NCBI GenBank assembly: GCA_026387335.1
Contig: JAPLLX010000004.1
Coordinates: 13,955-77,954, forward strand
Origin: Candidatus Omnitrophota bacterium
Lineage (GTDB): Bacteria > Omnitrophota > Gorgyraeia > Gygaellales > Profunditerraquicolaceae
DNA length: 64,000 nucleotides
Reading direction: 5' to 3'
The translations under genes were made by a program, and so were the position numbers. This document shows positions 1 through 15,363 of the stretch, piece after piece; the stretch's first letter is position 1; each line of letters starts with the position of its first letter. A model generated the notes under the pieces. It was not told where the DNA came from. It saw nothing but the letters and a program-made list of their open reading frames with translations, and ran no database searches.

Positions 1-1111
1 GGTGATCCATCTCAGTATCTTGGTAAGCGGTAGCCAGATGGACCTCAGTAACAGGATGCTCATTAAGATCCTGCTCACCTTTGCTATTTAAAAGCTCTTC
101 GTCAATACGAGTGCCTTCGGGAACCGGATTACCGGCAAAAACTATAAAATATGGCTCAGGTAGAGTAGATGCGCCATGCTGGACTACTCCGGCAAGGCCA
201 TATTCTTCCCTAGCTACCTTACCTAACTCGCCTAAAGTATTAAAACCTACCTTGGCCTTGGCTAGCTTACCCTGAGCATCCCTTACGCCGCCATGCTTAG
301 TCCCGGTCTGCACAGCAATCTTGGTTATGGATTCAAGGTCAAGTCCTTCTTCTCGGCTGAGTCTTCGTAATTCAGGGTTATAACCATCCATAAAAGCCCT
401 GAGGTCTTCCACGGTGCTATTTTTCTGTTTGGCTTTATCCAAACCCATACCGATTTCGCCAATCTCACCACCTAAATTTACCACAATGCCTAATTTATCT
501 AAACCTAACCTTCTTTCTTCTTTACGTATATATCTAGTCAACTCTGCTGTTAGCTTATAGTTAAGCTCCTGTTGTTCCTTATGAGTCAACTTATTCCAGT
601 CTACTAACTGAGACAGATCCACGTCTATCTGGTAAAAACCCGCCTCTAGTGCTTCAGTAATGAGTTCCTTTTCATCCTGGATTGCCTTTTCAGGATTCTT
701 TAAATAATCCTTAAGGGCTATCTGGAAGTGATCCCCCTGTAAATACAAGGTCTGGTTATAGCCTTCTTTAATAGCTGCAGCCAGCATTGAAGTAGTAAAT
801 TCAATAGGACGTTGGCCAGTATATTTTATTTCTGATTTGGCAATTTCCAATATAACCTTAGTTACGTTATTCTTAACAGCAGACTTCAATGCTGCCCTGG
901 CAGTATCATAGGCCATACCTCTGATGTTTATAGCCGGAACAGTGTAATGTGTCGGATCTTTTGCCTTTTGTACATATAAATTATGGACAGAACCAAGATT
1001 AATCCCTAGAGAGGCGGCGATACCCTTAATCAGTTGTCGGGATTTATTAACTATCTCTTGATTCGGGTTAAAGGTGGCATCATAGACTAATTGATCAATT
1101 AATACACTTCG
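1..1111 (-). other. Class II fructose-bisphosphate aldolase-like domain of the giant ORF, partial; an estimated ~115 aa of the domain lie beyond the window
   Basis: About 45% identity over ~370 aa to the stand-alone FBA encoded at 30799..32124, for example PAINIRGMAYDTARAALKSAVKNN against PAINLRSMSYDLARAIFRVAAKNN, plus LQGDHFQ, GGEIGEIG, TVEDLRAFMDGY, QTGTKHGG and VQHGASTLPE. Confidence 0.7.
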
Positions 1112-4100
1112 TAAGGCAGGTTCATTTAATATATTATAGCCGTCAGTAGTAACTTCCACTATTCCTGTTAAGGCGGCATCAAGAGCCTTTACGTCAGCGA
1201 AGTTAAGTCGAGGTTGAGCTAAGTCTGGCAATAGAAACTCCCTACCCGAATTTGAAGTAAGAAATAGTACTGCCTCGGGGCTTGCTCTCTTTATACGATT
1301 CTGCGAAGCAATAGGATCCTTGGTCTGGAACTCTGTGCGAATTACAAAAACACTGCCATCAGGAGTAATTGTAAGTGTATTCGTAGTCACCGTTCCTGCG
1401 GCATTATTAAAAGTTACGCGTTGCATTAAATCTGAGAACGTCGGGCCAAAAAACTTCTCCGAAGCTCCGGTTACTGCTGTTATAGCAAAAGTTCCGCTTC
1501 CTTGGAAATCTGCTGAATTGTAAGTTCTTCGCTGGGCATCAGCACTATAGCCCAACGCATCAAACATTCGTAAGTCTTCTTCTGTAAAACTATCGGCGGT
1601 TTGCGGGCTCACATCTTTTGCAGTCATTTTCTCGGAAACAAACCTATGACTAAACTGCCCATTAGGAACTAATGCTGCCACAAGCTCTGCAATAGTAGCC
1701 TCAGCAGAACCGCTCCTGCCGAACACCATCATCTTATATCCATCGAGGTCTAACCCCAATGAAGCCACTGCCCGCGGAGCAAAATCACCGTCGTCAGGGG
1801 TAAGTAACTTAATCCCGGGATATTTTTCTTGCAGTTGCTTGGCATCTTCAATAATTCTTAAATGCCGGCTGTCGCCTGACTGCGTAGGTTGTTTGGCAAG
1901 ATCCTTATCGCGAGAACCTAAAGTTAAAATTACAAGATGATTCATAAAATCTGCGTAGAAGCCTGTAAAGGCAGGGTCTGTTACTTCAATCCCTTTCTGC
2001 CTGGCTAAGGCAACTGCGATTCTGCGTGTGGCAATACTCGGAAGATCAAGAGGTTGAACTCCGGCATCTCTCGGGGCATTAAAACTTACCCCTGCAATAC
2101 GGAATTTATCCCAAACCGTTCTTCTAATTCCGCCTGGCAGATCTTTGAATAAAGCAGCTAACGACCAACTGTTAGTTGCCTGCGTAGCTGCCTCTTTAAC
2201 AATAAGGCCGTTGGTATGCTCAAGCGCGTCACCGGCAAAATAATTAATATTTACGCCTATTTTGCGCAATTCATTGACTTCGGCCTCAAGGCTTTTGAAA
2301 AAGTTTTCCGGGTCAGGGTCCCAATAGCCTTTCGCGTAACCCTTCCAGTAAATACGGCCTCTTTTTAGAGAAACTGCGTCATCTCTTTCTCCCTCATCCG
2401 CAATAACAATTATAGCTTCAAGGGGGTTGGCTTCAATAAAAGAGACTAAGCTTCTTCTGCTAAACTCAACTGCATTGGCATCAGCAATATTCTTTCCCTG
2501 TTTAGTGCCCACGCCTGCATAAAGAATCGAGCCCATAGCTTGGCCGATAGAAGTCTCAATTACTGCTCTTGTAGTAGGTTGCTTTAGGACTTCTTTAGTC
2601 GGGAAATTACCTTGTAACCTTACCACTTTTATTGTACTCTTTTTAAGGCCAAAATCTGTAAGCACCTTCCCAAAAGACGCGGGGATATCTTGATTTTCTA
2701 ATTCTGTGCCTGTTTGTAAAGCTAAGTTGGCGAGTGATTCCTGCGCGGCAGCGGCTTTTCCTTCTGCGGTCATATACGGCAGATAAGACTTAAGGTACTC
2801 AACGAATTGCTGCTTAAAAGCGCTCATATCTGAAGGTTCAACATCGCCTTTCACCACTGTTGCATCCTCCCCGGTAGAAATATTACTGACTACAACACCA
2901 TCAACCGGTAAAACAAATTTATTCTTTAATTCTGGATCAGCCAATAACTTACTCGCAATCTGGACTTGAAGTTGGTCAGGCATAGAATCACCTACTTTCT
3001 TACCCTGAGCTGCCAGAAAAGCAAGCGCCATTCTACCGCCGATTATAAAGAGATCTGTTTCTTTCTTTAAGGAATCAAATAGATCAATCTTAGTGTCAAG
3101 TTTTGCTCCGGCCAAAATAACTACTAAAGGCTTCACAGGATTATTACGGAGTTGTTTTAAGTAAGTATATTCATTTGCTAAACTTAATCCTGCGAATTTC
3201 GTTCCGAGAGCAAAAAATCTGGTGATTGCCTGAACAGAAGCATGAGCACGATGGTCAACCGAAAAGGAATCGTTAACATAATATTTCGCTATTCGGCTTA
3301 ACGCTTGAGCAAAAGCCTCGTTATTTAGTTCTTCGGCTAACCTAAAGCGGAGATTCTCTAAGAAAACAACTTCTCCGTTTTTCTGAGTATTCTGGATAAA
3401 ATCTTCTACCGGCTTACCAATACAATCATCTAATTTATACACCGGTACTCCCAGAAGTCTCTGGAGCTCTTTTGCTACAGGATCAGTCCTGAGCTTCTCA
3501 TCAACCTTTCCATTTGGCCTACCTAAATGAGTAGCTACAATAAGTTTGACTTTCTTGGCTAATAATGCTTGCGCGGTAGGAAGGATTGCCCTGAGCCTAG
3601 AATTATCGGTTATATTTAAATTTGAATCTAAAGGAACATTACCGTCTATGCGTAGAAAGACGGTATCTCCTTCTTTTACATTCTGTAAGAGACTATCAAA
3701 CTGGGAAAGCTCACCTGTAACAGGATCAATTAAAACTTTGACTCCCGGCAGGTTTTCCACTCCAAATTTGAATGCCTCTAAGAATGCTCCGCCGGCCATT
3801 GAGACATAGTCAAATTGATCCCTCTCTTTTTCAGATAATGTCGCTATAGTATCGCCTCCACCTACGATTTTCTTTATTGTTTTAGGCAAACTTAAAACGT
3901 TCTTGGCCGTACCTTTTGTGCCGTAGCTTGTAGATTCTACTTCCGCTACTCCCATAGGCCCATTCCAGAGCACCGTGCCCTTATCTCCAGCAGCTGAAAA
4001 AACCTCCTGCATTCTTTTCATATCAAGCTCCACGCTTGCCGGGCCAATATCCGCAATAACCTTGCCTTTAATGTGGGAAAAGGCATTTTCATAAACTATG

Positions 4101-7100
4101 AGGTTCACCATACGATTGGAGAAACCAGTTTCATTATCATACCAAGTCTCTAACCTGATGATTGTCTGATCAAGCTCATCATCGTAATCAACAATTTCAA
4201 TAGAATTACCATCCACAATAGTAGAAGCAGGATTACCAACAATAGTGGCGGATGTAATCGGATCCTGAGTATAAGCCAAAAGGCCCGCAAATTTATTTTG
4301 GCTGGCTTTTCTAAACGCATTTTGGATCTGTTCTTTAGTCACCTTACCCTTACGTACGACTAACAAGTCAACAACCGAACCTGTAGGGTTAGGAGTACGT
4401 ATTGCCCAACCATCAGATTTTCCGGTTAAGGAAGGGAATATTTTAGCTGCGGTTTTAGCAGCTCCGGTTGAAGCAGGCTCGGCATTACCTAATGCACTCC
4501 TACCACGCACAGGCTCTTTTTTATGCAGGTCTTGCTTGGCAAAATTCTGATCCGTAGTATAACCATGCACAGTAAGCATATCCTGAGAAACAATTCTACC
4601 TTCTATAGGAAGGCCTTCCTGTTCCAATGCGGAAATTTCATTTTCAAACGGTTCATCTAAAACAGCACCTACGGGCATTAAAGCATTAGTAGTGCAGCTG
4701 GCATTATCTTTAGTGAGGGCAGCCCGGGTTGGTTCAACTACACCCAAGACAATAGATTGTCCTACTCCTTCTGCCGGCGCAGTAATAATTACTTTCCCAC
4801 CTTTAATATGCGTAAGGTGAGCCATAGCGTCATCAGCATTCTTTAAATCTCCGGAACTTTCTGCGATAATTTTTATGCCTGCTACATCCCAGGGGAGCTC
4901 TGAAACTGCTTTTCTTTCGTTAACAATCAGGACTTTCTTCCCATTTATATCTAAAACACCTACCAGACTTTTTAATAACCAGTTAATTGAACTTTGCAGC
5001 TCAGCTCGAGGCTTTCCCCATGAAACTAAGAGTTTTTCAAGATAAGGAACAAGCTCTTCTTTCTCCTGAAGCATATACAATCTCTGGGAATCGATCTGAC
5101 CGTTGATAATCCCTTTTACCTGATCTTCTGTATAATTATTTAAAAGTTGAGAGATTTCCTTCTTTAATTGCTTAGGGGTTAAAATAATCCTAGTCACCGG
5201 TTTAGGCGTGGACTGCTGGATTGAATCTGCGGCTAAAAGCCAGGATATGATTAACATGTTGCTTGGGCCATTAATCATCCTGAGGTCAACATTCGGGTCT
5301 CCCTGCATAGCCCAGGCTATGGTCCTGCCTGTTCTACCCGGCCCATTTTCTCCCACAATTGCTGACTGCATCGGCTTACCTTTATATGTAAAGCGGGGCC
5401 GGCTTTTTCCGTCAAGAGACGGAATATAGCTGGAATTAGTATCCAAAAACTTAGGCCTTATAATTTGAGATTGCGCATCTTGAGCCGCGGAAAGAACGCT
5501 TTCAATTTCTTCGGAAATGGTTTGAGAATCTTTAGAGGTAACAATAGACGCAATCTTCCCTTCTTTCATACCATCCAACATTAAAGGAAGCTGGCTTAAG
5601 GCGAAAGTCGTATCCTCGTTATGTAAAACCTGTAGATGAACCATATTTTTTCCCGTAACTTTAGTCTGTTTACCCAAAACAACAATCGGCGCCTGTTTAT
5701 AGGTATCTAAAGAAACTTTCGAGTTATCCTCGGAATAAACAAGCTTACCCCTAAGAGCGCCTTCTGCGGCATCTTTAAAGATTTTGTTTATTGAAGCAAC
5801 ATCCGTATTAGAATTTAAAACCATCTTGACATCTAATATGCAACCGAGCATCTGCGGAGCAAAATGAACCCTTCCCTTGATTCGTCCGGATAAATCAGGA
5901 GAAAACATTTTACCCACATATTCATCTATATCCCTGCTTAAGGCAGGAGCAATATTATTTCCCGAAGAACGCATAAGAACCGGGTCTGGCCCGGAATTAT
6001 CCAAGCCACGCTGTAACGATGAAGGTGGCTGAACATCTGTAAAACTAACACCCCTGATTGTTTCCTGCGGGATAAGAGACAAAACCGGCCTTAAAGCGCT
6101 GACTGCAGTTAAAGCAGGATTCGTAACAATGACAAATTGAGCGCCCTGGCTTTTATGGCTAGCAGCTAACTGAGGGTTTTGGCCTTCAATTACAGCTTGC
6201 GCATTTAATTCCTTCCAAGGAAACTCTTTGGGGTTAGAAATTGCAGAAACCTTTAAAACGAGTTTCCCGTTTCTTCCCAAGCCTTCGGGTAAAACTTGAA
6301 AATTCTTATTAAACCAGTTTCTGAACGCGGGAGTTGCAGAAAAATCTTTGGTTAAAAGATAATAAAGGTTATCGGCAGAAACGCCGTTTACTCCCACTAA
6401 TTCAACGTCTTTACTCTTACCTAAGAGCCATTCACGGATAAGTTCCCGTTCCTGCGCACCGGGATTATTTATCGCAACTTTTACCGGCGAGCTCATGCTT
6501 GCTCTTGTTAATTCGTGTGCTGTAGGAGTCCCCGATGCATCCACTAGAATTCCCTTAAGTGTAGGAAGAAGCGTATCCACTACTGTTGTTATATTGAAAG
6601 TTGCTCCCTGCATTCTCGCGTCTACTTCCAGACCTGTAAGGATTTGACCACCGCTAAAATAACTCCGGATTACCTGTCCGGTAGGAGTACGTACTGTTTC
6701 CTTAATATTATACTCGCCTTGAGCGAAGGATTTTTTATAAGCGTTAAAATAAGTAGATTTAGACCAGGCGGCGGCGGAAGTAAGGCCGGTAAGGTCTTTT
6801 CTGTCAATACGCGAAGCGTATTTACCTTCCTGACCGGTAAAATGAGACTTAAACCAGCGAGAGAGAATGATGGAATAATAGACCTGCCTTAAGGAAGCGT
6901 AACGTTTGGAAAGATTCACTTCTTTGGTTAATTTAGGGATAATTAATTCGCGGATTAACTGGGAAGAATATTCGTTTAACGCCTTAGCCCGGCTGTCTTT
7001 AAAGCTATAGGTAGCCGAATCCTTAAGAAAATCCTGCTCCAGCATGACCTTTAAGGTCGCCTTATAGATATAGGCGCTGTCGTTGGTCTGACGGACAATG

Positions 7101-7654
7101 ATTTCATTGGGGACTATCCAGGGACGGGTCAAGGTAGGAATGGTTACTTCCTGGTAGCCATAGAGTTCTTCGGCCTTCTTATAAAGCCTGTTCCAGTATT
7201 CCCGGCCTTCGGGAGTTTCGGGTGAAGTAAATTGGGCGGTATCTTTCTTTAGCTGCAGGTCTGTCTCAAGCATGATTTTGCCTACGTCAGTCCTGGCTAA
7301 GTAGTCATCTATAATGTTATCTTCGGAATCCGGGCGCAGGTTTACCCAAAACTTGTCGCTGGGAAGATTTATACCTACTAGAAAATAATTTAATAATTCC
7401 TGGGTAGCGGCGTCAAGCTGTTTTCCCTTAAGCTCCTTGATATCGCCTTTATCCAACATTACCTTAATATTATCATTCTGGCTGTCAAAGGAGAAAAAAC
7501 GGATATGTACAGGCCTAAACCTATCCTGGACAAAGCCACCGGACATCTTAGATAAATGGCCGGCCAGATTAAGTTCGGTTGCGATACTGGCGAAACCTAT
7601 CTGCTGGAAGACCAAACACAGGGAAATTAGCAGGGAAGAAATTTTACGCCACAT
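1..7654 (-). CDS. Giant secreted multi-domain protein, at least 2551 aa in the window, with its C-terminus running off the window at position 1. Order of parts: signal peptide, ~390 aa unassigned, degenerate GAPDH-like, intact GAPDH-like, circularly permuted PGK-like, GlpX-type FBPase-like, class II FBA-like (partial)
   Basis: Hand translation of the reverse strand from ATG at 7654..7652 (AGGAGG 8 nt upstream) continues without a stop to position 2. The ORF track shows no competing long ORF in 1..7650. Motifs read directly: MWRKISSLLISLCLVFQQIGFASIA; NASCTTNALMP...TVHGYTTDQ...WYDNETGFSNRMVNL (GAPDH); RIDGNVP...THLGRPNG...LENLRFR...NDSFSVDHRAHAS...GGRMALAFL and WNGPMGV...GGGDTIA...MAGGAFLE (PGK); GKNIADANAVE...IADEGERDD...DPDPEN...TPDDGDFA (GlpX); PAINIRGMAYD...LQGDHFQ...QTGTKHGG...VQHGASTLPE (class II aldolase). 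Confidence 0.8.
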   Translation of the reverse strand, partial: MWRKISSLLISLCLVFQQIGFASIATELNLAGHLSKMSGGFVQDRFRPVHIRFFSFDSQNDNIKVMLDKGDIKELKGKQLDAATQELLNYFLVGINLPSDKFWVNLRPDSEDNIIDDYLARTDVGKIMLETDLQLKKDTAQFTSPETPEGREYWNRLYKKAEELYGYQEVTIPTLTRPWIVPNEIIVRQTNDSAYIYKATLKVMLEQDFLKDSATYSFKDSRAKALNEYSSQLIRELIIPKLTKEVNLSKRYASLRQVYYSIILSRWFKSHFTGQEGKYASRIDRKDLTGLTSAAAWSKSTYFNAYKKSFAQGEYNIKETVRTPTGQVIRSYFSGGQILTGLEVDARMQGATFNITTVVDTLLPTLKGILVDASGTPTAHELTRASMSSPVKVAINNPGAQERELIREWLLGKSKDVELVGVNGVSADNLYYLLTKDFSATPAFRNWFNKNFQVLPEGLGRNGKLVLKVSAISNPKEFPWKELNAQAVIEGQNPQLAASHKSQGAQFVIVTNPALTAVSALRPVLSLIPQETIRGVSFTDVQPPSSLQRGLDNSGPDPVLMRSSGNNIAPALSRDIDEYVGKMFSPDLSGRIKGRVHFAPQMLGCILDVKMVLNSNTDVASINKIFKDAAEGALRGKLVYSEDNSKVSLDTYKQAPIVVLGKQTKVTGKNMVHLQVLHNEDTTFALSQLPLMLDGMKEGKIASIVTSKDSQTISEEIESVLSAAQDAQSQIIRPKFLDTNSSYIPSLDGKSRPRFTYKGKPMQSAIVGENGPGRTGRTIAWAMQGDPNVDLRMINGPSNMLIISWLLAADSIQQSTPKPVTRIILTPKQLKKEISQLLNNYTEDQVKGIINGQIDSQRLYMLQEKEELVPYLEKLLVSWGKPRAELQSSINWLLKSLVGVLDINGKKVLIVNERKAVSELPWDVAGIKIIAESSGDLKNADDAMAHLTHIKGGKVIITAPAEGVGQSIVLGVVEPTRAALTKDNASCTTNALMPVGAVLDEPFENEISALEQEGLPIEGRIVSQDMLTVHGYTTDQNFAKQDLHKKEPVRGRSALGNAEPASTGAAKTAAKIFPSLTGKSDGWAIRTPNPTGSVVDLLVVRKGKVTKEQIQNAFRKASQNKFAGLLAYTQDPITSATIVGNPASTIVDGNSIEIVDYDDELDQTIIRLETWYDNETGFSNRMVNLIVYENAFSHIKGKVIADIGPASVELDMKRMQEVFSAAGDKGTVLWNGPMGVAEVESTSYGTKGTAKNVLSLPKTIKKIVGGGDTIATLSEKERDQFDYVSMAGGAFLEAFKFGVENLPGVKVLIDPVTGELSQFDSLLQNVKEGDTVFLRIDGNVPLDSNLNITDNSRLRAILPTAQALLAKKVKLIVATHLGRPNGKVDEKLRTDPVAKELQRLLGVPVYKLDDCIGKPVEDFIQNTQKNGEVVFLENLRFRLAEELNNEAFAQALSRIAKYYVNDSFSVDHRAHASVQAITRFFALGTKFAGLSLANEYTYLKQLRNNPVKPLVVILAGAKLDTKIDLFDSLKKETDLFIIGGRMALAFLAAQGKKVGDSMPDQLQVQIASKLLADPELKNKFVLPVDGVVVSNISTGEDATVVKGDVEPSDMSAFKQQFVEYLKSYLPYMTAEGKAAAAQESLANLALQTGTELENQDIPASFGKVLTDFGLKKSTIKVVRLQGNFPTKEVLKQPTTRAVIETSIGQAMGSILYAGVGTKQGKNIADANAVEFSRRSLVSFIEANPLEAIIVIADEGERDDAVSLKRGRIYWKGYAKGYWDPDPENFFKSLEAEVNELRKIGVNINYFAGDALEHTNGLIVKEAATQATNSWSLAALFKDLPGGIRRTVWDKFRIAGVSFNAPRDAGVQPLDLPSIATRRIAVALARQKGIEVTDPAFTGFYADFMNHLVILTLGSRDKDLAKQPTQSGDSRHLRIIEDAKQLQEKYPGIKLLTPDDGDFAPRAVASLGLDLDGYKMMVFGRSGSAEATIAELVAALVPNGQFSHRFVSEKMTAKDVSPQTADSFTEEDLRMFDALGYSADAQRRTYNSADFQGSGTFAITAVTGASEKFFGPTFSDLMQRVTFNNAAGTVTTNTLTITPDGSVFVIRTEFQTKDPIASQNRIKRASPEAVLFLTSNSGREFLLPDLAQPRLNFADVKALDAALTGIVEVTTDGYNILNEPALRSVLIDQLVYDATFNPNQEIVNKSRQLIKGIAASLGINLGSVHNLYVQKAKDPTHYTVPAINIRGMAYDTARAALKSAVKNNVTKVILEIAKSEIKYTGQRPIEFTTSMLAAAIKEGYNQTLYLQGDHFQIALKDYLKNPEKAIQDEKELITEALEAGFYQIDVDLSQLVDWNKLTHKEQQELNYKLTAELTRYIRKEERRLGLDKLGIVVNLGGEIGEIGMGLDKAKQKNSTVEDLRAFMDGYNPELRRLSREEGLDLESITKIAVQTGTKHGGVRDAQGKLAKAKVGFNTLGELGKVAREEYGLAGVVQHGASTLPEPYFIVFAGNPVPEGTRIDEELLNSKGEQDLNEHPVTEVHLATAYQDTEMDH
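1333..2572 (-). other. GlpX-type (class II) fructose-1,6-bisphosphatase-like domain with ~45- and ~20-aa insertions
   Basis: GKNIADANAVEFSRRSL aligns to GDKNTADGAAVNAMRIML; IIVIADEGERDDAVSL to TIVIGEGEIDEAPML; YWDPDPEN to AVDPIEGT; SFNAP to FLNAP; KLLTPDDGDFAPRAVAS to VFAIPDGDVAASIL; MMVFGRSGSAEATIAELVAALVPNG to VLYGIGGAPEGVVSAAVIRALDG; GTFAITAVTGAS to VIFSATGITKG. The metal-ligand Asp and Glu positions are retained. Confidence 0.5.
2845..4066 (-). other. Phosphoglycerate kinase-like domain, circularly permuted (C-terminal third first, then the N-domain up to the permutation point)
   Basis: The first segment IADIGPASVE...LWNGPMGVAEVE...IVGGGDTIATL...MAGGAFLEAFKFGVENLPGV matches the PGK C-terminal region. 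It is followed directly by RIDGNVP...ITDNSRLRAILPT...ATHLGRPNG...VVFLENLRFRLAEE...NDSFSVDHRAHAS...ILAGAKLDTKIDL...IIGGRMALAFL...LPVDGVVV, which is the PGK N-domain and the start of the C-domain. Confidence 0.65.
4090..5365 (-). other. Intact GAPDH-like domain of the giant ORF, with a ~90-aa insertion in the NAD-binding part
   Basis: AIVGENGPGRTGR...INGKKVLIVNER...LPWDVAGIKIIAESSG...KGGKVIITAPAEG...NASCTTNALMPVGAVLDE...TVHGYTTDQ...ASTGAAKTAAKIFPSLTGK...TPNPTGSVVDLLV...WYDNETGFSNRMVNL. The catalytic Cys and His are present. Confidence 0.7.
5460..6490 (-). other. Degenerate, probably non-catalytic GAPDH-like domain of the giant ORF
   Basis: VKVAINNPGAQER replaces the Rossmann INGFGRIGR. NGKLVLKVSAISNPKEFPWKELNAQAVIEGQ...AASHKSQGAQFVIVTNPA aligns to the GAPDH NAD domain. 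TNPALTAVSALRPV sits where SCTTNCLAP would be, so there is no Cys. SFTDVQPP replaces TVHAxTATQ, so there is no His. GRIKGRVHFAPQMLGCILDVKM aligns to GKLTGMAFRVPTxNVSVVDL. This stretch was re-translated carefully (6300..5821). Confidence 0.55.
7577..7654 (-). other. Sec-type signal peptide (or N-in signal anchor) of the giant ORF
   Basis: M-W-R-K n-region, 18-residue hydrophobic core ISSLLISLCLVFQQIGFA, then SIA. Confidence 0.6.
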
Positions 7655-7728
7655 TTTTACATCCTCCTTTTTTCTGGTTCCTCATTATTAAATACTTTTT
7701 AAAATTCCTTTTAATTCCACAAAAAAGA

Positions 7729-7757
7729 AAGCCGAACTGACCCTTTCAGTTCGGCTT
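7729..7757. terminator. Perfect 12-bp stem hairpin (AAGCCGAACTGA / CCCTT / TCAGTTCGGCTT) with T-rich tracts on both sides; looks like a bidirectional intrinsic terminator, in the divergent region between the giant ORF and the ppiD-like gene
   Basis: Read directly. Flanked by aaaaaag on the 5' side and aattattttatt on the 3' side. Confidence 0.45.
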
Positions 7758-7952
7758 AATTATTTTATTACGTGGCAGATCCCCGGTCGTCCTCCGATAA
7801 CCGGAAATTTATTAAACCTTAACAAATTTGATAAAGGATAACATATCAACCTGGCCTTGTCAAGTTTTTTTTAAGTTTTTTCAAGCAAACCTACACTTTA
7901 TAGTTGCAAAATCAAAAGTTTAGACTATAATGGATAAAACGTTAACAATAAC

Positions 7953-8012
7953 TCCGCGCATAGCGCGGAGTAAACAAGCGTTAAGCGCCGGAGGCAACGC
8001 TTGTTTAAGGAG
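7953..8012 (+). promoter_or_regulatory. Two strong hairpins in the leader of the ppiD-like gene (CTCCGCGC-ATA-GCGCGGAG, and AAACAAGCGTT-13 nt-AACGCTTGTTT), followed by an AAGGAG RBS
   Basis: Perfect 8-bp and 11-bp stems read directly. The second stem ends 1 nt before the RBS. Confidence 0.4.
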
Positions 8013-8018
8013 AAACTG

Positions 8019-9401
8019 ATGCTTAAAATATTGCGCCATAAAAAGACAGCCAAAAAAGTCTGGATATTCCTGGCTTTAATCATAATACCCGCCTTTGCGC
8101 TTTGGGGTTTTGGCGGGGCATTCCGTTCTCGTGAAGAAAATATGCCCGCGGGCAAAATTTTTGGACGGGCCATATCCAAGCTTGAACTTAAGGATTCGCT
8201 GAGCGCCGCCACAACCATAGCCATTCTACAATACGGAGATAAACTCCCCGAGATACAGAAATACCTTAACCTTGAAGGTCAAGCCTGGCAGAGGCTCATT
8301 CTGCTGGAAGAAGCCAAGAGGCGCGCAATTAAAGCTAGCGACGCAGAAGTCATCCAGGCCATTGAAGCCCTTCCCTACTTTCAGTATAAAGGAGGCTTTG
8401 ACAATAAAACTTACCAACAAAACCTGCAGTATATTTTTCGCCTTAATCCGCGCCAATTTGAGGAACAGATGCGCCAAGGCATTATACTCAGTAAGCTCTA
8501 TAAGCAAGTTACCGACAACACAAAAATTGACGAAAATGCGATCGGGAAAGAGTACGAGAAGCTAAACCAGGAAATAAGCATCTACTATATCTCCAGTCTT
8601 TCTGCTGATTTTATCAAGGATATTAAGCCCAGCGCCGGCGAGCTCAATGATTATTTTAGCAAAAATAAGGATATGTTCAGAGAACCGGCTTCCTTTAATA
8701 TAGAATACCTGGTAATAAATTCTGTGGTCCAGGTCAAAGAAATCTCAGAATTATTAAACAAAAAATTCACGTTTGCAAAAATTGCCCAAGAATTAAAATT
8801 ACAACCCAAGGAAACCGGCCTCTTTATTCAGAACAGCCCTGCGCCGGGGCTGGAATGGCTGGCAGAAAACCCGGAGATAATCTCTAAACTTAAAACGGTA
8901 GAATGCAGCCCGCCGGTACAGGTAGGTGATTTGTATTACCTGTTAAAATTAAAGGAAACCAAAGAAGCGCATACTCCGGAATTTAAGGCGGTAGAACAAA
9001 AGGTCAGGCTTGCCCTGATTAATACCGGGGCCCTAAAAAAAGCTGAACAAAAAATAAACCAGTGCGCAAAAGAGCTAAAATCCCGGAAATTTAAACAAGC
9101 GGCCAAAAAATGCGGATTAAAAGTCAAGGAAACCGCCCCCTTTAAATTCGCCAGCAATATTGAAGGTATCGGCGCCGCGGATATATTTTGGAATACCGCA
9201 AAATCCTTAAAAGACACAGAGAATAGCGAAATTATCCGCTTACCTTCCGGTTTCTATATAATTAAGGTAAAGGCCATCTCTAAAATAGACCCTAAAAAAT
9301 TTGAACAGGAGAAAGCAGGGTTTGGGAACAGCTTACTTGAACAGAAAAAACAGGAGAAATTCAGGGAATTCTTGACAGGGTTGAATAAAAAAGCGCAATA
9401 G
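8019..9401 (+). CDS. Periplasmic chaperone PpiD/SurA-like protein with an N-terminal membrane anchor
   Basis: The ORF-track start (TTG 8001) is probably an extension; ATG 8019 sits 6 nt after AAGGAG. N-terminal TM segment WIFLALIIIPAFALWGF, then a SurA_N-like region. No clear parvulin motif was recognised. Confidence 0.5.
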   Translation: MLKILRHKKTAKKVWIFLALIIIPAFALWGFGGAFRSREENMPAGKIFGRAISKLELKDSLSAATTIAILQYGDKLPEIQKYLNLEGQAWQRLILLEEAKRRAIKASDAEVIQAIEALPYFQYKGGFDNKTYQQNLQYIFRLNPRQFEEQMRQGIILSKLYKQVTDNTKIDENAIGKEYEKLNQEISIYYISSLSADFIKDIKPSAGELNDYFSKNKDMFREPASFNIEYLVINSVVQVKEISELLNKKFTFAKIAQELKLQPKETGLFIQNSPAPGLEWLAENPEIISKLKTVECSPPVQVGDLYYLLKLKETKEAHTPEFKAVEQKVRLALINTGALKKAEQKINQCAKELKSRKFKQAAKKCGLKVKETAPFKFASNIEGIGAADIFWNTAKSLKDTENSEIIRLPSGFYIIKVKAISKIDPKKFEQEKAGFGNSLLEQKKQEKFREFLTGLNKKAQ

Positions 9402-9437
9402 GCTAGGAAACCTATTGCGCTTTTAAGATACTAGAGC

Positions 9438-9620
9438 TTAACCTACTTTAATGCAATTTACCGGGCAAGAATCAGCTACTTCCTGCAGGTTACAAGTCGC
9501 GCAAACCTGAGTTTTTACGTGAGCGATCCCGTCTCCCTGCACCTGAAAAACCTCCGGGCAGGATTGCTCGCATAAACCGCAACCTACGCAAGTAGAAGCA
9601 TCAATAGTAACTTTTGACAT
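9438..9620 (-). CDS. fdx: Small 4Fe-4S ferredoxin (60 aa)
   Basis: CVGCGLCEQSCP ... CATCNLQEVADSCP; matches the short archaeal/Thermotoga-type ferredoxins. Confidence 0.8.
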   Translation of the reverse strand: MSKVTIDASTCVGCGLCEQSCPEVFQVQGDGIAHVKTQVCATCNLQEVADSCPVNCIKVG

Positions 9621-9646
9621 TTATCCTCTCCTTACCCACAAGGGTA

Positions 9647-9676
9647 CACCGACGCAATTCCGATTAGCGTCGGGTG
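9647..9676. repeat. Hairpin CACCGACGC-AATTCCGATTA-GCGTCGGGTG; member of a two-copy palindromic family (second copy 40256..40285)
   Basis: Same stem (CCGACGC/GCGTCGG) and a similar 11-nt loop (AATnCCnnTTA) at both loci. Confidence 0.4.
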
Positions 9677-9678
9677 CT

Positions 9679-10158
9679 TTATCTTTCTAACAAATTCTCA
9701 AACATCTCTTCGTGATCGACTTCTTCCGACAATATATGCGTGACTAGCTGATAAGTAACATGATCCTTACCGAGAGTCTTTTTGGCGATCTTACTATAAA
9801 CCTCAATTGCCCCTGCTTCTGCCTCAGTAACAATACGGATGATCCTGTTGATATCCGCGGTATTCTTGGGAGGCATAAGGTACGGCGCGTTGGCGTTCTT
9901 CTCTAAATCCATAGGATTAGCCGTAGGAGCATCGCCTAACTTTATGATCAGATCCGCTACTTCTGTGGCATGCTCTAATTCATCCTTAGCTAATTTTTCC
10001 AGCATTTCTTTCACATCTTCATAAGCCTTGCCGGAAACAATCTGGGCCATATACCAATATAAATAATAAGCGAGCCATTCGTCGCAATACGCCTTATTTA
10101 AATCCTTGACCAGGTCTTTTAAGCTTACCTCTACAATTGCCCTTCCCTGTTTTCCCAT
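9679..10158 (-). CDS. Ferritin-like diiron protein (rubrerythrin/bacterioferritin superfamily, no rubredoxin domain)
   Basis: Diiron EXXH-type motifs DELEHATE and SEEVDHEE; 159 aa. Confidence 0.55.
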   Translation of the reverse strand: MGKQGRAIVEVSLKDLVKDLNKAYCDEWLAYYLYWYMAQIVSGKAYEDVKEMLEKLAKDELEHATEVADLIIKLGDAPTANPMDLEKNANAPYLMPPKNTADINRIIRIVTEAEAGAIEVYSKIAKKTLGKDHVTYQLVTHILSEEVDHEEMFENLLER

Positions 10159-10193
10159 TTCTTACCTCCTTGATTTTCCAGCTTAAGCTCGTT

Positions 10194-11078
10194 TTAAGCC
10201 TGCTGGGCTTCAACTTTCAATCCGTACTTTTTTATGTTATTATCCGCGATCTCCTGAATCTTCTTTAGTTCTTCAGGTTTATTCAATAAATGCTTAAACC
10301 TTCCCTGAAGCTTCAGGTATTCTTCCACCGGCTTAGGCGTAATCTGCCTGCGGTTGCTTAGTAAACCAAACTCATACTCAATCAAAGGATACAGCCCTGT
10401 CTCAACAGCCAACTTGGCTACCACAAGAGTAAGATTTGTTTCATGCCTCCAGCCTAACGGGCAAGGCACATGCACCTGTATATATTTAGGGCCTTTAATG
10501 GAAAGGGCCTTTTTTACTTTCCTCTGTAAATCCTGGGCAAATCCGCTAGAGGCCGTAGCTACATAAGGAATACCGTGGGCATTGGTAATCTCCGGCATCG
10601 GCTTTTTCGGACGAAGGTTCCCCAAGGAAGACGCGCCCGCGGGGCTGGTCGTTGTATTGGTATCAAAAGGAGTAAGCCCGCTTCTTTGCACCCCGGTATT
10701 CATATACGCTTCGTTATCATAACAGACATACAAAATATTGTGCCCGCGCTCAAGCATCCCGGAAAGGGCCTGCAGGCCTATATCCGCGCTGCTTCCGTCT
10801 CCGCCTTGCGCGATAATATTTATACTGTCAGCCTTACCTAAATATTTAATCGCTGATTCAACTCCTGAAGCGACTGCCGCGGCATTCTCAAATAACGAAT
10901 GGATAAAAGGAACTCTCCAGCTTGACTCAGGATATTTGGTCGAGAAGACCTCCAGGCACCCGGTATTATTTACGATAATAGTGTTTGGACCGGCCGCATC
11001 CAATACAAGCCGCGCTGCCATAGACTGGCCGCAACCTGCGCAGGCTGTATGCCCCGGGGCGAACAAAGTCTCAGTCAT
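10194..11078 (-). CDS. porB: Pyruvate:ferredoxin oxidoreductase beta subunit (TPP-binding)
   Basis: CAGCGQSM and GDGSSADIG TPP-fold motifs; in a porG-porD-porA-porB operon. Confidence 0.85.
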   Translation of the reverse strand: MTETLFAPGHTACAGCGQSMAARLVLDAAGPNTIIVNNTGCLEVFSTKYPESSWRVPFIHSLFENAAAVASGVESAIKYLGKADSINIIAQGGDGSSADIGLQALSGMLERGHNILYVCYDNEAYMNTGVQRSGLTPFDTNTTTSPAGASSLGNLRPKKPMPEITNAHGIPYVATASSGFAQDLQRKVKKALSIKGPKYIQVHVPCPLGWRHETNLTLVVAKLAVETGLYPLIEYEFGLLSNRRQITPKPVEEYLKLQGRFKHLLNKPEELKKIQEIADNNIKKYGLKVEAQQA

Positions 11079-11125
11079 CCCGCGACTCCCTTCGATAGCT
11101 GGGGATTTCTAGAGACACAAAATGA

Positions 11126-12307
11126 TTAGTCATAGTTCTCCTTTAAAAGCTCTGGCTTTAAATCTATAAACTCAATCCCCTTCTCCTTGCCGTTCATCAG
11201 CCGGAATATTTCTTTTATAGAATCCTTAGTGATATCGCGTCCGCCTAAACCTACCACAAAACTGTTTATACTTTGAGGTTTCTTCGTCTTGCCGGAAAAT
11301 ACAGCCTTAACTTCCACGTGAAGAGGAGCAAATGACCCTAAAGAGAGGGCCCGATCAATAACCGCGACTTTAGGGATATTTTTTAAAGCAGTGTATATCT
11401 CATCAACTGGAAAAGGCCTTAAAGATGTAACCTTAAGTAAACCCACTTTTTTACCCTTGACCCTTAATTCATCAATGACCTCTTTTATTGTACCGCAGAC
11501 TGAGCCCATAGCCACAATCACTTTTTCAGCATCCTTAAGCTGATAACCCTCAACTAAGCCATTATAAGTCCTGCCGAACACTTTTGAAAATTCCGCAGTA
11601 AGTTTAGGGATAAGAGCTAAAGCTTCTTTATGTGTTTCATTAAGGGCATAGCGAGCCTCCATATAATATTCAGGGTCAACTAACGGACCCAAGGTCAGAG
11701 GATTCTCTACATCTAATTTATAAGGGGGCTTATAAGGCGGTAAAAATTTATCTACCTGTTCCTGCGTGGGCATATCTACTGTCTCTAACCCGTGAGTAAG
11801 AATAAAACCATCCATACAGACCATCACCGGAAGCATTATGGATTTATCTTCGCCTAATTTGTAAGCGATAAGATGTAGATCCACTACTTCCTGTATATCT
11901 TCGGCATGGAACTGAATCCAGCCTGAATCGCGCAGGGAGACCGCATCCTGATGGTCGTTCCAGATATTTATGGGAGCGGATATCGCCCGGGCAGCAGTAG
12001 TCATAATTACAGGTAAACGCATGCCGGCAATATTATAAAGGACTTCGGCCATATAAAACAACCCTTGAGAACTGGTAGCGGTATAAGCGCGCACCCCTGT
12101 TGCCACTGCGCCTAAAACTACGGAGGCCGCGGAATGTTCGCTTTCTACATTAACAAATTGGGCATTCAGCTGGCCGTCAGCGACTATCTGGGCAAGTCCT
12201 TCCACAATATGAGTCTGAGGAGTAATGGGGTAGGCGGAGATTACTCCGGGCTTACAGCGCTTGATAATCTCAGCTACCGCCATTGAACCTTCTAATAATT
12301 CTTTCAT
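11126..12307 (-). CDS. porA: Pyruvate:ferredoxin oxidoreductase alpha subunit
   Basis: 393 aa; typical PorA N-terminus (MAVAEIIKRCKPGVISAYPITPQTHIVE). Confidence 0.85.
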   Translation of the reverse strand: MKELLEGSMAVAEIIKRCKPGVISAYPITPQTHIVEGLAQIVADGQLNAQFVNVESEHSAASVVLGAVATGVRAYTATSSQGLFYMAEVLYNIAGMRLPVIMTTAARAISAPINIWNDHQDAVSLRDSGWIQFHAEDIQEVVDLHLIAYKLGEDKSIMLPVMVCMDGFILTHGLETVDMPTQEQVDKFLPPYKPPYKLDVENPLTLGPLVDPEYYMEARYALNETHKEALALIPKLTAEFSKVFGRTYNGLVEGYQLKDAEKVIVAMGSVCGTIKEVIDELRVKGKKVGLLKVTSLRPFPVDEIYTALKNIPKVAVIDRALSLGSFAPLHVEVKAVFSGKTKKPQSINSFVVGLGGRDITKDSIKEIFRLMNGKEKGIEFIDLKPELLKENYD

Positions 12308-12308
12308 A

Positions 12309-12572
12309 TTATCCTTGTGAGTCTTCTTTAATCATCTCTATATCCTGCTTAGGGCAGACTGCCGCGCAGTTTCCGCAGCCCTTGCAGTAATCAGGATTAA
12401 AGTCATAAGTATTCTTACCCTGGCCGCTGATACAGGCCTCCGGACAGATGAGGAGACACATATTACAGGCAATACAGTTTTTCTTTAAGAATTTGGGCCT
12501 TAACTCAGTCCTCCACGGACCGGTCTTATTATTCTTACTTGAACCCGGTTTAGAAATCAACGGACCAAACAT
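12309..12572 (-). CDS. porD: Pyruvate:ferredoxin oxidoreductase delta subunit (2x[4Fe-4S] ferredoxin)
   Basis: CIACNMCLLICPE and CKGCGNCAAVCP. Confidence 0.8.
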   Translation of the reverse strand: MFGPLISKPGSSKNNKTGPWRTELRPKFLKKNCIACNMCLLICPEACISGQGKNTYDFNPDYCKGCGNCAAVCPKQDIEMIKEDSQG

Positions 12573-12583
12573 TAACGAACTCC

Positions 12584-13135
12584 CTATTTATTGCCGCGGG
12601 TTACAAAATCAAAACCTTCCTGCGCGGCTTTAATATTAGCTTCCTGAAGCTTGGCGGCGAATCTGTGTTTAATAGCCGCGATTAATTCATCTAAAGTCAA
12701 TTCTTGCGTAGCCGCGCAGAAAGCGCCTAAAAGCGCGGTGTTGCCTAAGGGCCTACCTATATGTTTTAGGGCGATATCGTTTGCCGGAACCAGGAAAACT
12801 TTCTGTTTAGGCTTGACCTTAGGCATCTGCACAGAATCTTCCTTGCCGCTAATAATAGCTATGCCATCCTCTTTAAGCCCGGAAAAACAATTATACCCGC
12901 GCATAAGAGTATGGTCGGCGATAATAACGTAATCCGGCTCGTATATCTGGCTGCGCAAGCGTACCGGCTTAGAGTCAACGCGCACAAACGCGTTCATGGG
13001 AGCTCCCATACGGGCAGCGCCAAAACTGGGGAAGGCGTAAGGGCATAAACCTTTTAAAAAGTAGGCATAACCTAATAACGTGGCAGTAGTAATTGCGCCC
13101 TGGCCTGCGCGGGCGTGGATCCTGATTTCTTTCAT
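12584..13135 (-). CDS. porG: Pyruvate:ferredoxin oxidoreductase gamma subunit
   Basis: IRIHARAGQGAITTATLL N-terminus, characteristic of PorG. Confidence 0.8.
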   Translation of the reverse strand: MKEIRIHARAGQGAITTATLLGYAYFLKGLCPYAFPSFGAARMGAPMNAFVRVDSKPVRLRSQIYEPDYVIIADHTLMRGYNCFSGLKEDGIAIISGKEDSVQMPKVKPKQKVFLVPANDIALKHIGRPLGNTALLGAFCAATQELTLDELIAAIKHRFAAKLQEANIKAAQEGFDFVTRGNK

Positions 13136-13198
13136 TTTCTCCTTAGCCGTTACAAAGTTTGTTAATTATATATTCTTTGCGCTGGTTTGTCAAATCTT

Positions 13199-13828
13199 TT
13201 ATTCAACAGTGTTATTTGCCTCAACTTTTTCTCCTTTAGGGCCTAATCTGGCCTGCCTGGCCTTAAGGAAATCCTTGGCTTCAGTAGCATCTATTACCCC
13301 ATCGCCATTTTTATCAAATTTAGCCTCTTCCGGGGTGTCCACGATTGAACGGGCCTGTATTTTTTCCTGTTCGTCGACTACACCATCCTTGTTCGTATCC
13401 AGCCGGGCTTTCCTTCTTTCTCTGAATTGATTGGCTTCTGTTTCGTCAACTACGCCATCATTATTCGTATCCATCCTTGCTTCTTTAGGAGTGTTTACTC
13501 TGGCTTTTTCTTCCTGATTAGCTTGCGTAGCCTCCACTTTATCCACCCTACCATCATTATTCGTATCCATCCTCGCTTCTTTAGGAGTGTTTACCTGTGC
13601 GCGGGCTTGATTAGCTTCTACTCTGCCCACTCTACCGTCATTATTCGTATCCATCCTCGCTTCTTTCGGGGTATTTACCACTGAACGCTGTTTAACCTCC
13701 CCGCCCTTGTTTCTATCGGCGGGTTGAGCTTTTTGCTGCATTGCCGGTTTAGCCGGTTTAGCCGGCTGAGCATAGGCAATAGAAACAAAAAATGCCATGA
13801 CCAAAACCAACCCTAAGCTTTTAAACAT
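13199..13828 (-). CDS. Secreted protein with five EF-hand-like calcium-binding loops in tandem repeats
   Basis: Signal peptide MFKSLGLVLVMAFFVSIAYA. Loops DTNNDGRVGRVE, DTNNDGRVDKVE, DTNNDGVVDETE, DTNKDGVVDEQE and DKNGDGVIDATE each fit the DxNxDGxIxxxE pattern. Repeated unit VNTPKEARMDTNNDG. Confidence 0.6.
   Translation of the reverse strand: MFKSLGLVLVMAFFVSIAYAQPAKPAKPAMQQKAQPADRNKGGEVKQRSVVNTPKEARMDTNNDGRVGRVEANQARAQVNTPKEARMDTNNDGRVDKVEATQANQEEKARVNTPKEARMDTNNDGVVDETEANQFRERRKARLDTNKDGVVDEQEKIQARSIVDTPEEAKFDKNGDGVIDATEAKDFLKARQARLGPKGEKVEANNTVE
13440..13690. repeat. About three ~87-bp near-identical tandem DNA repeats inside the EF-hand gene (core attattcgtatccatcctcgcttctttaggagtgtttac)
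   Basis: Near-identical 40-mers at ~13470, ~13552 and ~13636, read directly. Confidence 0.7.
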
Positions 13829-13859
13829 ATCTCCTCCTTTATTAATAATCCCGCTAAAA

Positions 13860-14894
13860 TTAAAAATTATCCTTTATATAAAGCGAGGTAGCGCGTAAAA
13901 GATGGTATATCTCTTCAGATTCGCTTATCTTTAGCGTACCTAAGCCGCAGGAAGGGCTGATAAACATCTGACTCCTAAGTAAAGAACCTTCCAGCCCCTT
14001 ATTAACTAACGCCTCAATACAGCTCTTAATCTTATTAACCAAAGAAACAGGACTGTCTTCTATTCTACCACTTTGGGTAGGCACAATACCCCAACAGATG
14101 ATTCCCCCTCTTTTTAAGAACCCTTTCAGGTTTTGGGCGTAGAGGACGAATCTCTCCTGGAAATTATATGCGTCAAAGTTAATAATGTCAATAGCCGGGA
14201 TATCCGTAAATAAAGACCAATCGGTATTGCCGCAGCAATGTAGCCCCAAAAACAGGTCTTTACTCTTTACGCTTTCAGAGAACTCGGCTAGACCCTGGAC
14301 TACATCTTCCCTGTTGAGCGAAGTATAGGCTGAGCCAAAAGTACCCAGGTATGGCTCGTCGATAAAAGCAATGATGGGCCTGGCGAATTTCTTAAATAAA
14401 TCTATCTGCCAGCGTAACTTCATACTCAAGGCTTTGAAGATAGCCTGTTTAAATACCGGATCATGCAAAAGCATGACTCCCTTTTCGTCGTTTATGCCGG
14501 CCAGAAAAGTAAAGGGACCGGTAACCTGAATCTTGATAAAATCTATTCTCCCTAAATCCACGTTACTAAGCCGCTCATAAAATTTATGCAGGCCTAAAGC
14601 AAAACTAGCGCTTAGCTTAAAATAATCCAGATCATCGTTAATAATTTTCTCATAAAATACCTCCAGCTTCTTCTCTTTATTTTCAGGGTTAAAGACTAAA
14701 CCATTGCCTTTAATTTCAAGGCAGGGGATGTTTTCGCTAAATTGGGCCAGCATCCCTTCGCGAAAATCCCTCTTGGGAAACTGCGGCCAAAAAGGGATGT
14801 TGGGCACAAATTTAAAGATTAAATCCAAAGCCTTATCCGCGTCCAGATGCGGAAGACTTCCTACTCCCGTAGCTAAACCTCTTATTCCGCTCAT
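13860..14894 (-). CDS. Uroporphyrinogen-decarboxylase-fold protein (MetE C-terminal / MtaA-CmuA-like methyltransferase family)
   Basis: 344 aa; HCCG motif (GLHCCGNTDW), consistent with the Zn-binding H-x-C-G of URO-D-like methyltransferases. Assignment is tentative. Confidence 0.35.
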   Translation of the reverse strand: MSGIRGLATGVGSLPHLDADKALDLIFKFVPNIPFWPQFPKRDFREGMLAQFSENIPCLEIKGNGLVFNPENKEKKLEVFYEKIINDDLDYFKLSASFALGLHKFYERLSNVDLGRIDFIKIQVTGPFTFLAGINDEKGVMLLHDPVFKQAIFKALSMKLRWQIDLFKKFARPIIAFIDEPYLGTFGSAYTSLNREDVVQGLAEFSESVKSKDLFLGLHCCGNTDWSLFTDIPAIDIINFDAYNFQERFVLYAQNLKGFLKRGGIICWGIVPTQSGRIEDSPVSLVNKIKSCIEALVNKGLEGSLLRSQMFISPSCGLGTLKISESEEIYHLLRATSLYIKDNF

Positions 14895-15352: not shown

Positions 15353-15363
15353 CTTTCTTTACT

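Follow-up and report, generated by a model that had tools for sequence, protein, structure and literature searches.

The stretch of DNA analyzed here, referred to as the window, comprises 64,000 nucleotides of contig JAPLLX010000004.1 (positions 13,955 to 77,954 of the forward strand; GenBank assembly GCA_026387335.1) from a Candidatus Omnitrophota bacterium. At its left end, a minus-strand reading frame starts with the ATG at 7654 and remains open without a stop to position 2, encoding 2551 amino acids (aa). The identical full-length database protein, MCX5695737.1 (P0121), has 3600 aa, originates from a 328-kb contig of a Candidatus Omnitrophica/Omnitrophota metagenome-assembled genome, and carries the NCBI name 'triose-phosphate isomerase'. 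The part beyond the window was read from this protein record and not from DNA, and the domain order was obtained from Pfam, NCBIfam, and motif checks. As one piece of its modular cargo, this megaprotein contains an internal, probably catalytically competent, metal-dependent (class II-type) fructose-bisphosphate aldolase (FBA) domain whose origin is most likely not the stand-alone fba gene of the same window.

The domains of the megaprotein are listed in Table 1. An earlier sequence-based note on this locus (the original prediction) described the aldolase as a C-terminal domain, cut by the window edge, of a protein larger than 2551 aa. The cut and the larger size agree with the database protein. 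The domain itself is internal (aa ~2151–2631), because the triose-phosphate isomerase (TIM), the enolase, and the C-terminal module come after it. It starts near window position 1204 (aa 2151), upstream of the 1111 given previously, and ends at aa ~2631, which is about 80 aa past the window edge.

Fold and active-site residues of the fused aldolase

The aldolase domain consists of a helical N-terminal extension of ~85 aa, followed by a (beta/alpha)8 barrel and a helical C-terminal region of ~90 aa. The AlphaFold2 model of aa 2151–2645 has a pLDDT of 91.6 and a pTM of 0.92. Foldseek comparison with the PDB matches it at probability 1.00 to 7ncc, 1dos, 3ekl, and 2fiq, which is the barrel of the class II superfamily. 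The top matches are class II FBAs (7ncc, with a target-normalized TM-score of 0.72; 1dos; and the enzymes of M. tuberculosis and Candida) together with GatZ. More distant matches include the ~490-aa tagatose 4-epimerase 9lhw and UxaE 6il9, with target-normalized TM-scores of 0.41–0.48. At the sequence level, a single-sequence search of the PDB with the aldolase domain found only GatZ (E 0.005).

An alignment of 41 family members has 72 invariant columns, including the Asp-His pair, both later His residues, 'PAxNxR', 'DxDxS', and 'GGEIGE'; the fused domain is itself one of the 41 sequences and hence keeps all 72 by definition. The motifs DHFQ, KHGG, and QHGAS, previously reported as retained, are all present and lie in invariant columns. 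The family profile has tagatose-bisphosphate aldolase KbaY (8q57) as its best PDB match and pairs GGEIGEvG, GTxHGG, and QHGaStLP with KbaY GEIGKIGG, GTAHG, and LHGGSGVP. It also matches GatZ (2fiq), in which GGDH is paired with GDH. The paired His positions correspond to the zinc-binding His residues of the AgaY and FbaA structures. D2308/H2309, H2454, and H2493 are accordingly the predicted Asp-His pair and the two further His metal ligands of the fused domain.

The DHAP (dihydroxyacetone phosphate)-binding Asn and Asp of canonical enzymes, N286 and D288 in E. coli, are absent. KbaY 'KVNVDTE' is aligned to 'EVHLATA', with Asp replaced by Ala, and 'H-L-A-T' is present throughout the family, the stand-alone fba included, with H, A, and T unvarying in either subfamily. 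The conserved 'GGEIGEIG' motif is aligned with KbaY 'GEIGKIGG'. The loop at aa ~2400–2415 has a lower pLDDT, and the equivalent of the catalytic Glu is not confidently assignable.

The fused domain resembles the known class II FBAs of PF01116, such as E. coli FbaA (1DOS) and B. methanolicus FBAP (7NCC), in its (beta/alpha)8 fold, in the Asp-His and two further His residues, in the 'PAxN', 'xDxS', and 'GEIG' motifs, and in the genomic association with phosphofructokinase (PFK), fructose-bisphosphatase (FBPase), and TIM. In contrast, it is only 14–17% identical to them, comprises ~480 aa compared with 280–360 aa, has H-L-A-T in place of N-x-D-T, and scores below the PF01116 threshold.

Table 1. 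Features of the window and of the full-length megaprotein P0121; window positions refer to the 64,000-nucleotide stretch
Feature	Window position	Strand	Residues of P0121	Basis or remark
Class II-type aldolase domain	2..1204	-	2151-2551 (in-window part of the 3600-aa protein)	BLASTP, AlphaFold2, Foldseek
Asp2308-His2309 ('GDHFQ'), putative general-acid Asp and first metal-ligand His	728..733	-	2308-2309	invariant 41/41; aligned to GatZ 'GGDH'
His2454 ('GTKHGG'), putative second metal-ligand His	293..295	-	2454	invariant; aligned to KbaY 'GTAHG'
His2493 ('QHGAST'), putative third metal-ligand His	176..178	-	2493	invariant; aligned to KbaY 'LHGGSG'
His2539 in 'EVHLAT', replaces Asn of the class II 'N-x-D-T' DHAP-binding motif	38..40	-	2539	KbaY alignment
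Stand-alone 441-aa aldolase (MCX5695766.1), widespread ~450-aa subfamily	30799..32124	-		PF01116, database match, NCBI name, clade
pfkA (ATP-phosphofructokinase)	32226..33203	-		PF00365 334.5 bits; immediately upstream of the stand-alone fba, same strand
Strain-specific cargo block (GAPDH x2, PGK, GlpX-like domain, aldolase)	1..6482	-		blastn against sister locus L088; P0121 against P0126
Conserved N-terminal module, ends in linker 'ASMSSPV'	6491..7654	-	1-388	common to 119/120 giants
Only strongly hydrophobic segment, signal- or anchor-like			5-26	hydropathy scan
GAPDH-like domain 1, degenerate	5375..6490	-	~390-686	22% identity to a GAPDH; without SCTTN
GAPDH domain 2	4070..5374	-	761-1195	catalytic SCTTN (aa 986), TVHGYT (aa 1028)
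Phosphoglycerate kinase, apparently circularly permuted	2780..4069	-	1196-1625	Pfam PGK 325 bits; order of motifs and of high-scoring segment pairs
Unannotated ~525-aa domain immediately preceding the aldolase (possibly GlpX-like)	1205..2779	-	1626-2150	'DDGDF', 'GRSGSAEA' motifs
TIM	beyond window		2643-2905	NWK, GHSE, EPVWAIGTG intact
Enolase, divergent	beyond window		~3000-3400	
Conserved C-terminal module	beyond window		last ~130-180 aa	

Among the other cargo domains, the two glyceraldehyde-3-phosphate dehydrogenase (GAPDH) domains are in tandem, and the second has an insertion in its NAD-binding part. In the apparently permuted phosphoglycerate kinase (PGK), the C-terminal piece, marked by WNGP (aa 1230) and GGGD (aa 1265), comes before the N-domain, whose HLGRP motif is at aa 1376. 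In another fused protein, P0122, the Pfam match to PGK is likewise split into two stretches. The top NCBIfam match of the megaprotein PGK part is NF010569, the model of the PGK-TIM protein of Thermotoga. Natural glycolytic fusions include this PGK-TIM of Thermotoga and the TIM-GAPDH of stramenopile mitochondria, and the megaprotein is similar to them in joining consecutive glycolytic enzymes on one polypeptide. In contrast to these two-enzyme, cytosolic or organellar proteins, it has six or seven domains in a non-pathway order, an export-type N-terminus, and terminal modules.

The ~525-aa domain preceding the aldolase has no Pfam match and no PDB sequence match, whether searched alone or as a profile, and does not resemble the class I FBPase found ahead of the 481-aa aldolases described below. 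Its homologues are found only in other giants (P0125, P0129, and P0041). In hhalign it matches the GlpX-like region of the giant P0157 with a probability of 66% and E 5.8e-5, from which a GlpX-like (class II FBPase-like) identity is put forward as a weak hypothesis.

Relation to the resident stand-alone gene

The stand-alone fba passes PF01116 (61.2 vs. 25.5 bits) but scores below the cut-offs of the NCBIfam equivalogs. BLASTP of window 2–1111 (minus strand) against its 441-aa open reading frame (ORF) gave 156 identities over 370 aa (42%) with 60% positives and E 2e-96; the identity is 44% on trimmed alignment columns and 39% over the whole domain (447 aa). This alignment bears out the homology stated in the original prediction, which put the protein identity at approximately 45%. 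Its statement of low DNA identity holds as well, with one 116-nt patch at 71% and otherwise chance-level fragments between the two aldolase genes, and so does its conclusion that the duplication is not recent, the DNA similarity being nearly nil and the divergence ancient. A recent duplication or gene conversion is ruled out because the two genes lack DNA similarity. When other stand-alone relatives of the megaprotein domains were looked for within the window, only fba matched.

The relatives of the two aldolases differ. A database search with the fused domain returned first the fragments of other fused proteins (70–73% identity), next a tight stand-alone clade of ~481 aa (~60%), and then the ~450-aa family (45–47%). 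The fused domain is 61–70% identical to the aldolase domains inside other Omnitrophota giant ORFs, 55–59% identical to the ~481-aa clade, and 45–48% identical to ~450-aa proteins of unrelated phyla. Among the GTDB species representatives, which a single-protein scan showed not to include the source genome, loci at ≥62% identity occur on three Candidatus Omnitrophota contigs only, where the aldolase forms part of giant ORFs with lengths of at least 1788, 1980, and 1192 aa. The stand-alone fba shares 52–60% identity with the ~450-aa family, which occurs in Syntrophales, Nitrospirota, Chloroflexota, and other groups. These ~450-aa proteins, which NCBI names 'class II fructose-bisphosphate aldolase' and which are also present in Brocadia, are similar to the fused domain in the 72 invariant columns and the length class, and frequently have FBPase or PFK neighbors. 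They differ in being stand-alone, whereas the fused domain is inside a giant; the identity is 44–48%, and clade-specific insertions occur, for example around 'GMGLDKAKQK' and 'FAGNPVPEGTRIDEELLNSKGEQDL'.

In neighbor-joining bootstrap analysis, the clade of fused and 481-aa forms was recovered in 83 of 100 replicates, and the 481-aa clade was monophyletic in all 100. Since the identities and this clade group the fused domain with the 481-aa proteins, its relation to fba appears to be one between two subfamilies. The fused domain resembles the fba of its own genome no more closely than it does foreign ~450-aa proteins, and thus the split would predate, or lie outside, the diversification of the ~450-aa family. 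The term 'paralogue of fba' in the original prediction is therefore right as to homology and lacks support as to an in-genome origin, the fused domain being closer to the aldolase domains of other giants. By these comparisons, it is most readily placed in a sister subfamily and not as a descendant of the resident fba linked to pfkA.

A simple intragenomic paralogue, in which an old fba duplicate was captured by a giant gene and then evolved faster, is a doubtful alternative; the likeness to Patescibacteria genes would then reflect transfer out of Omnitrophota. The fused Omnitrophota forms are indeed paraphyletic in the tree, with the 481-aa clade nested beside them, and are monophyletic in only 61 of 100 replicates, and both subfamilies share the H-L-A-T motif along with the invariant columns. 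However, the 44% identity of the fused domain to its own fba, next to 45–48% to the ~450-aa proteins of unrelated phyla, argues against capture, as does the 52–60% identity of the resident fba to those same proteins.

The stand-alone branch of the sister subfamily points beyond Omnitrophota. On one contig hosting a 481-aa gene (L001), RF-1 shares 83% identity with a Candidatus Nealsonbacteria protein and 71–77% with proteins named Paceibacterota or Patescibacteria; on a second such contig (L003), RF-1 is only 60–65% identical to named proteins of the candidate phyla radiation. The aldolase subfamily would thus be common to Omnitrophota giants and to stand-alone genes of at least one Patescibacteria-like lineage, possibly with horizontal transfer. 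In other metagenomes, two truncated aldolase-domain genes, P0001 and P0041 (L004 392..1360 and L005 632..895), adjoin transposase genes (DDE_Tnp_1, HTH_Tnp_1). P0041 is followed by an overlapping ORF, and the arrangement suggests copies disrupted by insertion sequences or frameshifts.

Terminal modules, linkers, and exchange of the cargo

Among the best 120 matches to the megaprotein, the N-module is at the N-terminus in 119 and the C-module at the C-terminus in 107. The enzymes between the modules vary and include PPDK, PGM/PMM, transketolase, enolase, kinases, phosphoesterases, and others. A search with the N-module profile yielded 7,671 representatives of clusters at 50% identity, including 6,364 at E ≤ 1e-30; the match is always N-terminal, and the proteins range from 410 to 7,391 aa. 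The module consists of a signal-like helix and a domain of ~340 aa, and the signal-like region is unusually conserved ('FQQxGFAQ'). It has no Pfam match, and a fold comparison of its AlphaFold2 model (pLDDT 71 overall, ~75–93 in most of the core) with the PDB gave nothing better than E 0.47. P0121 has both features by which the family is defined here, namely the N-terminal helix with its module, and the C-module with linkers.

The linkers of P0121 are 'ASMSSPV' (aa 388), 'AQASSAAV' (aa 2632), 'SASSAVF' (aa 2907), and 'SASSALK' (aa 3470). They are located exactly at the junctions of N-module and cargo, aldolase and TIM, TIM and enolase, and enolase and C-module, respectively; only the linker at aa 388 is inside the window (~6485..6500). 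The tetrapeptide ASSA occurs 113 times in the 120 giants compared with 8.4 ± 2.7 times in shuffled sequences, a 13-fold enrichment, and in 102 of the 113 occurrences the next residue is V, I, L, or M. The linker can be written as (A)SS(A/P) plus V/I/L/M. Its likeness to an Ala-X-Ala peptidase site means that it may serve for processing, or else as a hotspot of recombination. At one further Omnitrophota locus (L008), the aldolase forms a unit of its own with ASSA linkers on both sides, followed by the C-module. In the giant P0136, the linker contexts 'SSPVSAPQES' (aa 389/1691) and 'LRELGQASSA' (aa 1060/2362) are each repeated ~1,300 aa apart, which indicates an internal duplication of a whole cargo unit.

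The comparison with a sister strain reveals a replacement bounded by these linkers. Window 6483..17738 is 94.7% identical in DNA to the sister-strain locus L088, and blastn found no match in 1..6482. The sister protein (P0126, 3652 aa) is 92.5% identical to P0121 over aa 1–398 and 97.6% identical over aa 2630–3600, whereas the 2,230 aa between them are unrelated. The breakpoints are on the linkers 'ASMSSPV' and 'ASSAAVQV', and the full cargo block delimited by ASSA/SSPV motifs is 6.7 kb in length, with a G+C content of 0.42–0.43 vs. ~0.45 further along the window. The contigs of the sister protein also carry a copy of the stand-alone fba with ≥90% identity.

In the sister block, a PGK in canonical order is present, and FBPase_3 (FBP aldolase/phosphatase, where FBP is fructose 1,6-bisphosphate; 136 bits) is located directly before TIM. 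This enzyme (PF01950, FBPase class V) occupies the same pre-TIM slot as the aldolase of P0121 but is unrelated in fold and sequence. It combines aldolase and phosphatase chemistry, as proposed for the pair of GlpX-like domain and aldolase, and would be an analogue and not a homologue. In the sister strain, a non-homologous domain has thus taken over this slot and, with it, the presumed aldolase function. By this scheme, the aldolase would move among giant genes within linker-bounded cassettes, and we infer recombination at the linkers. Modular evolution is here caught between two strains, with a class II aldolase block exchanged for a block that carries an unrelated FBP aldolase/phosphatase.

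The megaprotein, or the position of its aldolase, could also be an assembly chimera of paralogous giants joined via their conserved N-modules, which is very hard to credit. Paralogue N-modules are 55–93% identical, P0121 is known from a single contig, and a look-up of its encoding contig returned no record. Against this, the frame is open for 3600 codons, both flanks rejoin the same syntenic locus (94.7% in DNA and 97.6% in protein), and the sequence shared at the junctions is just ~20–30 nt. Mis-assembly is unlikely because two compensating mis-joins via ~20–30 nt would be needed. Moreover, other giants independently combine aldolase, GAPDH/PGK, and TIM, and the sister protein is found on 5 contigs of different assemblies.

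Catalytic function and cellular location

The FBP-aldolase function of the fused domain is suggested by its fold, its conserved residues, and its gene and fusion context. The resident fba has pfkA immediately upstream. The 481-aa genes immediately follow a class I FBPase gene, and their clusters, which also contain PPDK-like, GAPDH, and enolase genes, read as gluconeogenic. Among 77 loci of the ~450-aa family in other phyla (L011–L087), 31 have a class I FBPase gene on the same strand no more than 500 bp upstream, and 8 have a PFK gene at a distance of up to 500 bp. The FBPase-aldolase gene pair is thus conserved in this uncharacterized family. Fusions repeat the association: the order in P0122 is PFK-aldolase-GAPDH-PGK, the aldolase of P0121 directly precedes TIM, and in the giant P0157 a canonical class II FBA comes immediately after a GlpX-like domain (PF03320, 37.5 bits). 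The recurring pairing of FBPase and aldolase suggests that the unit can run in the gluconeogenic direction. On the megaprotein, the aldolase would interconvert FBP with DHAP and glyceraldehyde 3-phosphate beside TIM, and probably beside an FBPase-like domain. Its substrates and products would be handled by the adjacent TIM as well as by GAPDH and PGK, with the glycolysis/gluconeogenesis trunk co-localized on one polypeptide.

Several points weigh against this assignment and its setting. To our knowledge and in the searches made, no enzyme of the ~450–480-aa family has been characterized or solved, and the closest PDB sequence matches of the family profile reach just E 4e-5 (KbaY) and 1.5e-4. 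In the Pfam scan, the fused domain has no PF01116 match, and the sole model it passes is GatZ_KbaZ-like PF08013 (30.3 bits vs. a cut-off of 26.7). All NCBIfam matches are far under their cut-offs (TIGR00167, 41.7 vs. 215.6). The canonical Asn/Asp are His/Ala family-wide, and thus the chemistry could differ; class II aldolases are known to epimerize sugar phosphates, at C4 in the case of class II FBAs (PMC5434028). The GlpX-like assignment of the adjoining domain is weak at the hhalign probability given above. The tree is neighbor-joining only with very distant outgroups, and the Patescibacteria assignment of the 481-aa hosts is firm for L001 only. In addition, GAPDH and PGK would be without NAD+ and ADP outside the cytoplasm, so that a simple 'metabolon' reading fits badly.

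Some of these points would agree with a different enzyme of the class II superfamily, such as a tagatose-bisphosphate aldolase or a sugar-phosphate 4-epimerase, or with a non-catalytic GatZ-like subunit. The PF08013 pass, the Foldseek matches of similar length to 9lhw and UxaE 6il9, and the replacement of N-x-D by H-x-A together with the C4 epimerization possible in class II FBAs (PMC5434028) are in line with it. However, the PF08013 match spans only profile positions 29–179 of 420, short of a full-length GatZ/KbaZ, and the GatZ equivalog models score 22–26 bits vs. cut-offs of >560 (TIGR02810, 26 vs. 568.8). The target-normalized TM-score is higher for the true FBA 7ncc than for the epimerases. 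The steady neighbors and fusion partners are PFK, FBPase, TIM, and GAPDH and not tagatose or galactitol genes, and the sister strain has an FBP aldolase/phosphatase in place of the domain. A non-FBA identity is thus improbable. As for the 'FBA' label in the original prediction, fold and ligands fit it; both proteins are far below the NCBIfam equivalog cut-offs, and we infer the name. With that reading, the ~450–480-aa branch is one of uncharacterized class II aldolases with an altered substrate-binding motif, and many anaerobic phyla seem to obtain their FBA activity from it.

The N-terminus of P0121 (MWRK, a hydrophobic stretch, and 'GFAS') is Sec-signal-like, and the hydropathy scan found no other transmembrane segment, which points to export of the megaprotein. 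West-Roberts et al. (2023) predicted FBA, TIM, FBPase, and PGM domains of Omnitrophota giants to be extracellular and also warned that the topology may be wrong (10.1101/2023.11.21.568195). A 2026 preprint gives 94% of long Omnitrophota proteins as having a signal peptide or transmembrane helices (10.64898/2026.06.07.730766). Enzymes using NAD+ and ADP outside the cytoplasm would need, for example, contact with prey cytoplasm; otherwise, the N-terminus would be an anchor and the topology different. An exported 'polyprotein', tethered or processed at its linkers, that runs FBPase-like, aldolase, TIM, GAPDH, PGK, and enolase steps outside the cell and exchanges cassettes at linkers is unlikely. 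If true, it would place a near-complete trunk of glycolysis/gluconeogenesis outside an ultra-small, host-dependent bacterium, for example at the contact with prey cytoplasm. The family of >7,600 clusters would then diversify by swapping enzyme cassettes, including the Patescibacteria-shared aldolase, at ASSA/SSPV.

The Archaeovorins of West-Roberts et al. (2023) and the 'multi-enzyme metabolic' class of the 2026 preprint are similar to P0121 in phylum, in glycolytic domains (TIM, FBPase, PGM, and FBA), in an N-terminal signal or transmembrane segment, and in the localization puzzle. They differ in having at least 10,000–30,000 aa, many transmembrane helices, and SecA-like domains. An Archaeovorin has ≥30,000 aa, many transmembrane segments, and a SecA DEAD-like domain, whereas P0121 has 3600 aa and one hydrophobic segment, and the Pfam scan found no SecA domain in it. 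A literature search on fused glycolytic proteins in Velamenicoccus found no usable description.

The presence of glycolytic domains in Omnitrophota giant proteins is already known from these preprints. Judged against their available parts, several elements are apparently new: this aldolase lineage and how it relates to Patescibacteria genes and the resident fba, the H-x-A motif found throughout the family, the extent of the N-/C-module family and the family itself, linkers of the ASSA/SSPV type, and the replacement of a cassette at strain level. The aldolase paralogy itself is ordinary but its setting is not: central-metabolic enzymes are located behind an export-type signal in >7,600 Omnitrophota clusters at 50% identity. 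For the way of life of ultra-small, host-dependent Omnitrophota, it matters directly whether glycolysis is extracellular or the topology has been mispredicted.

The megaprotein gene is flanked by a divergently oriented gene for a SurA-like periplasmic chaperone/peptidyl-prolyl isomerase and by genes for a ferritin-like protein and pyruvate:ferredoxin oxidoreductase subunits (8001..9401, plus strand; 9679..12307, minus strand). That a periplasmic chaperone gene adjoins that of a giant with a signal may have a meaning or be a coincidence. The sister strain has the same arrangement of SurA-like, ferritin, and pyruvate:ferredoxin oxidoreductase genes upstream.

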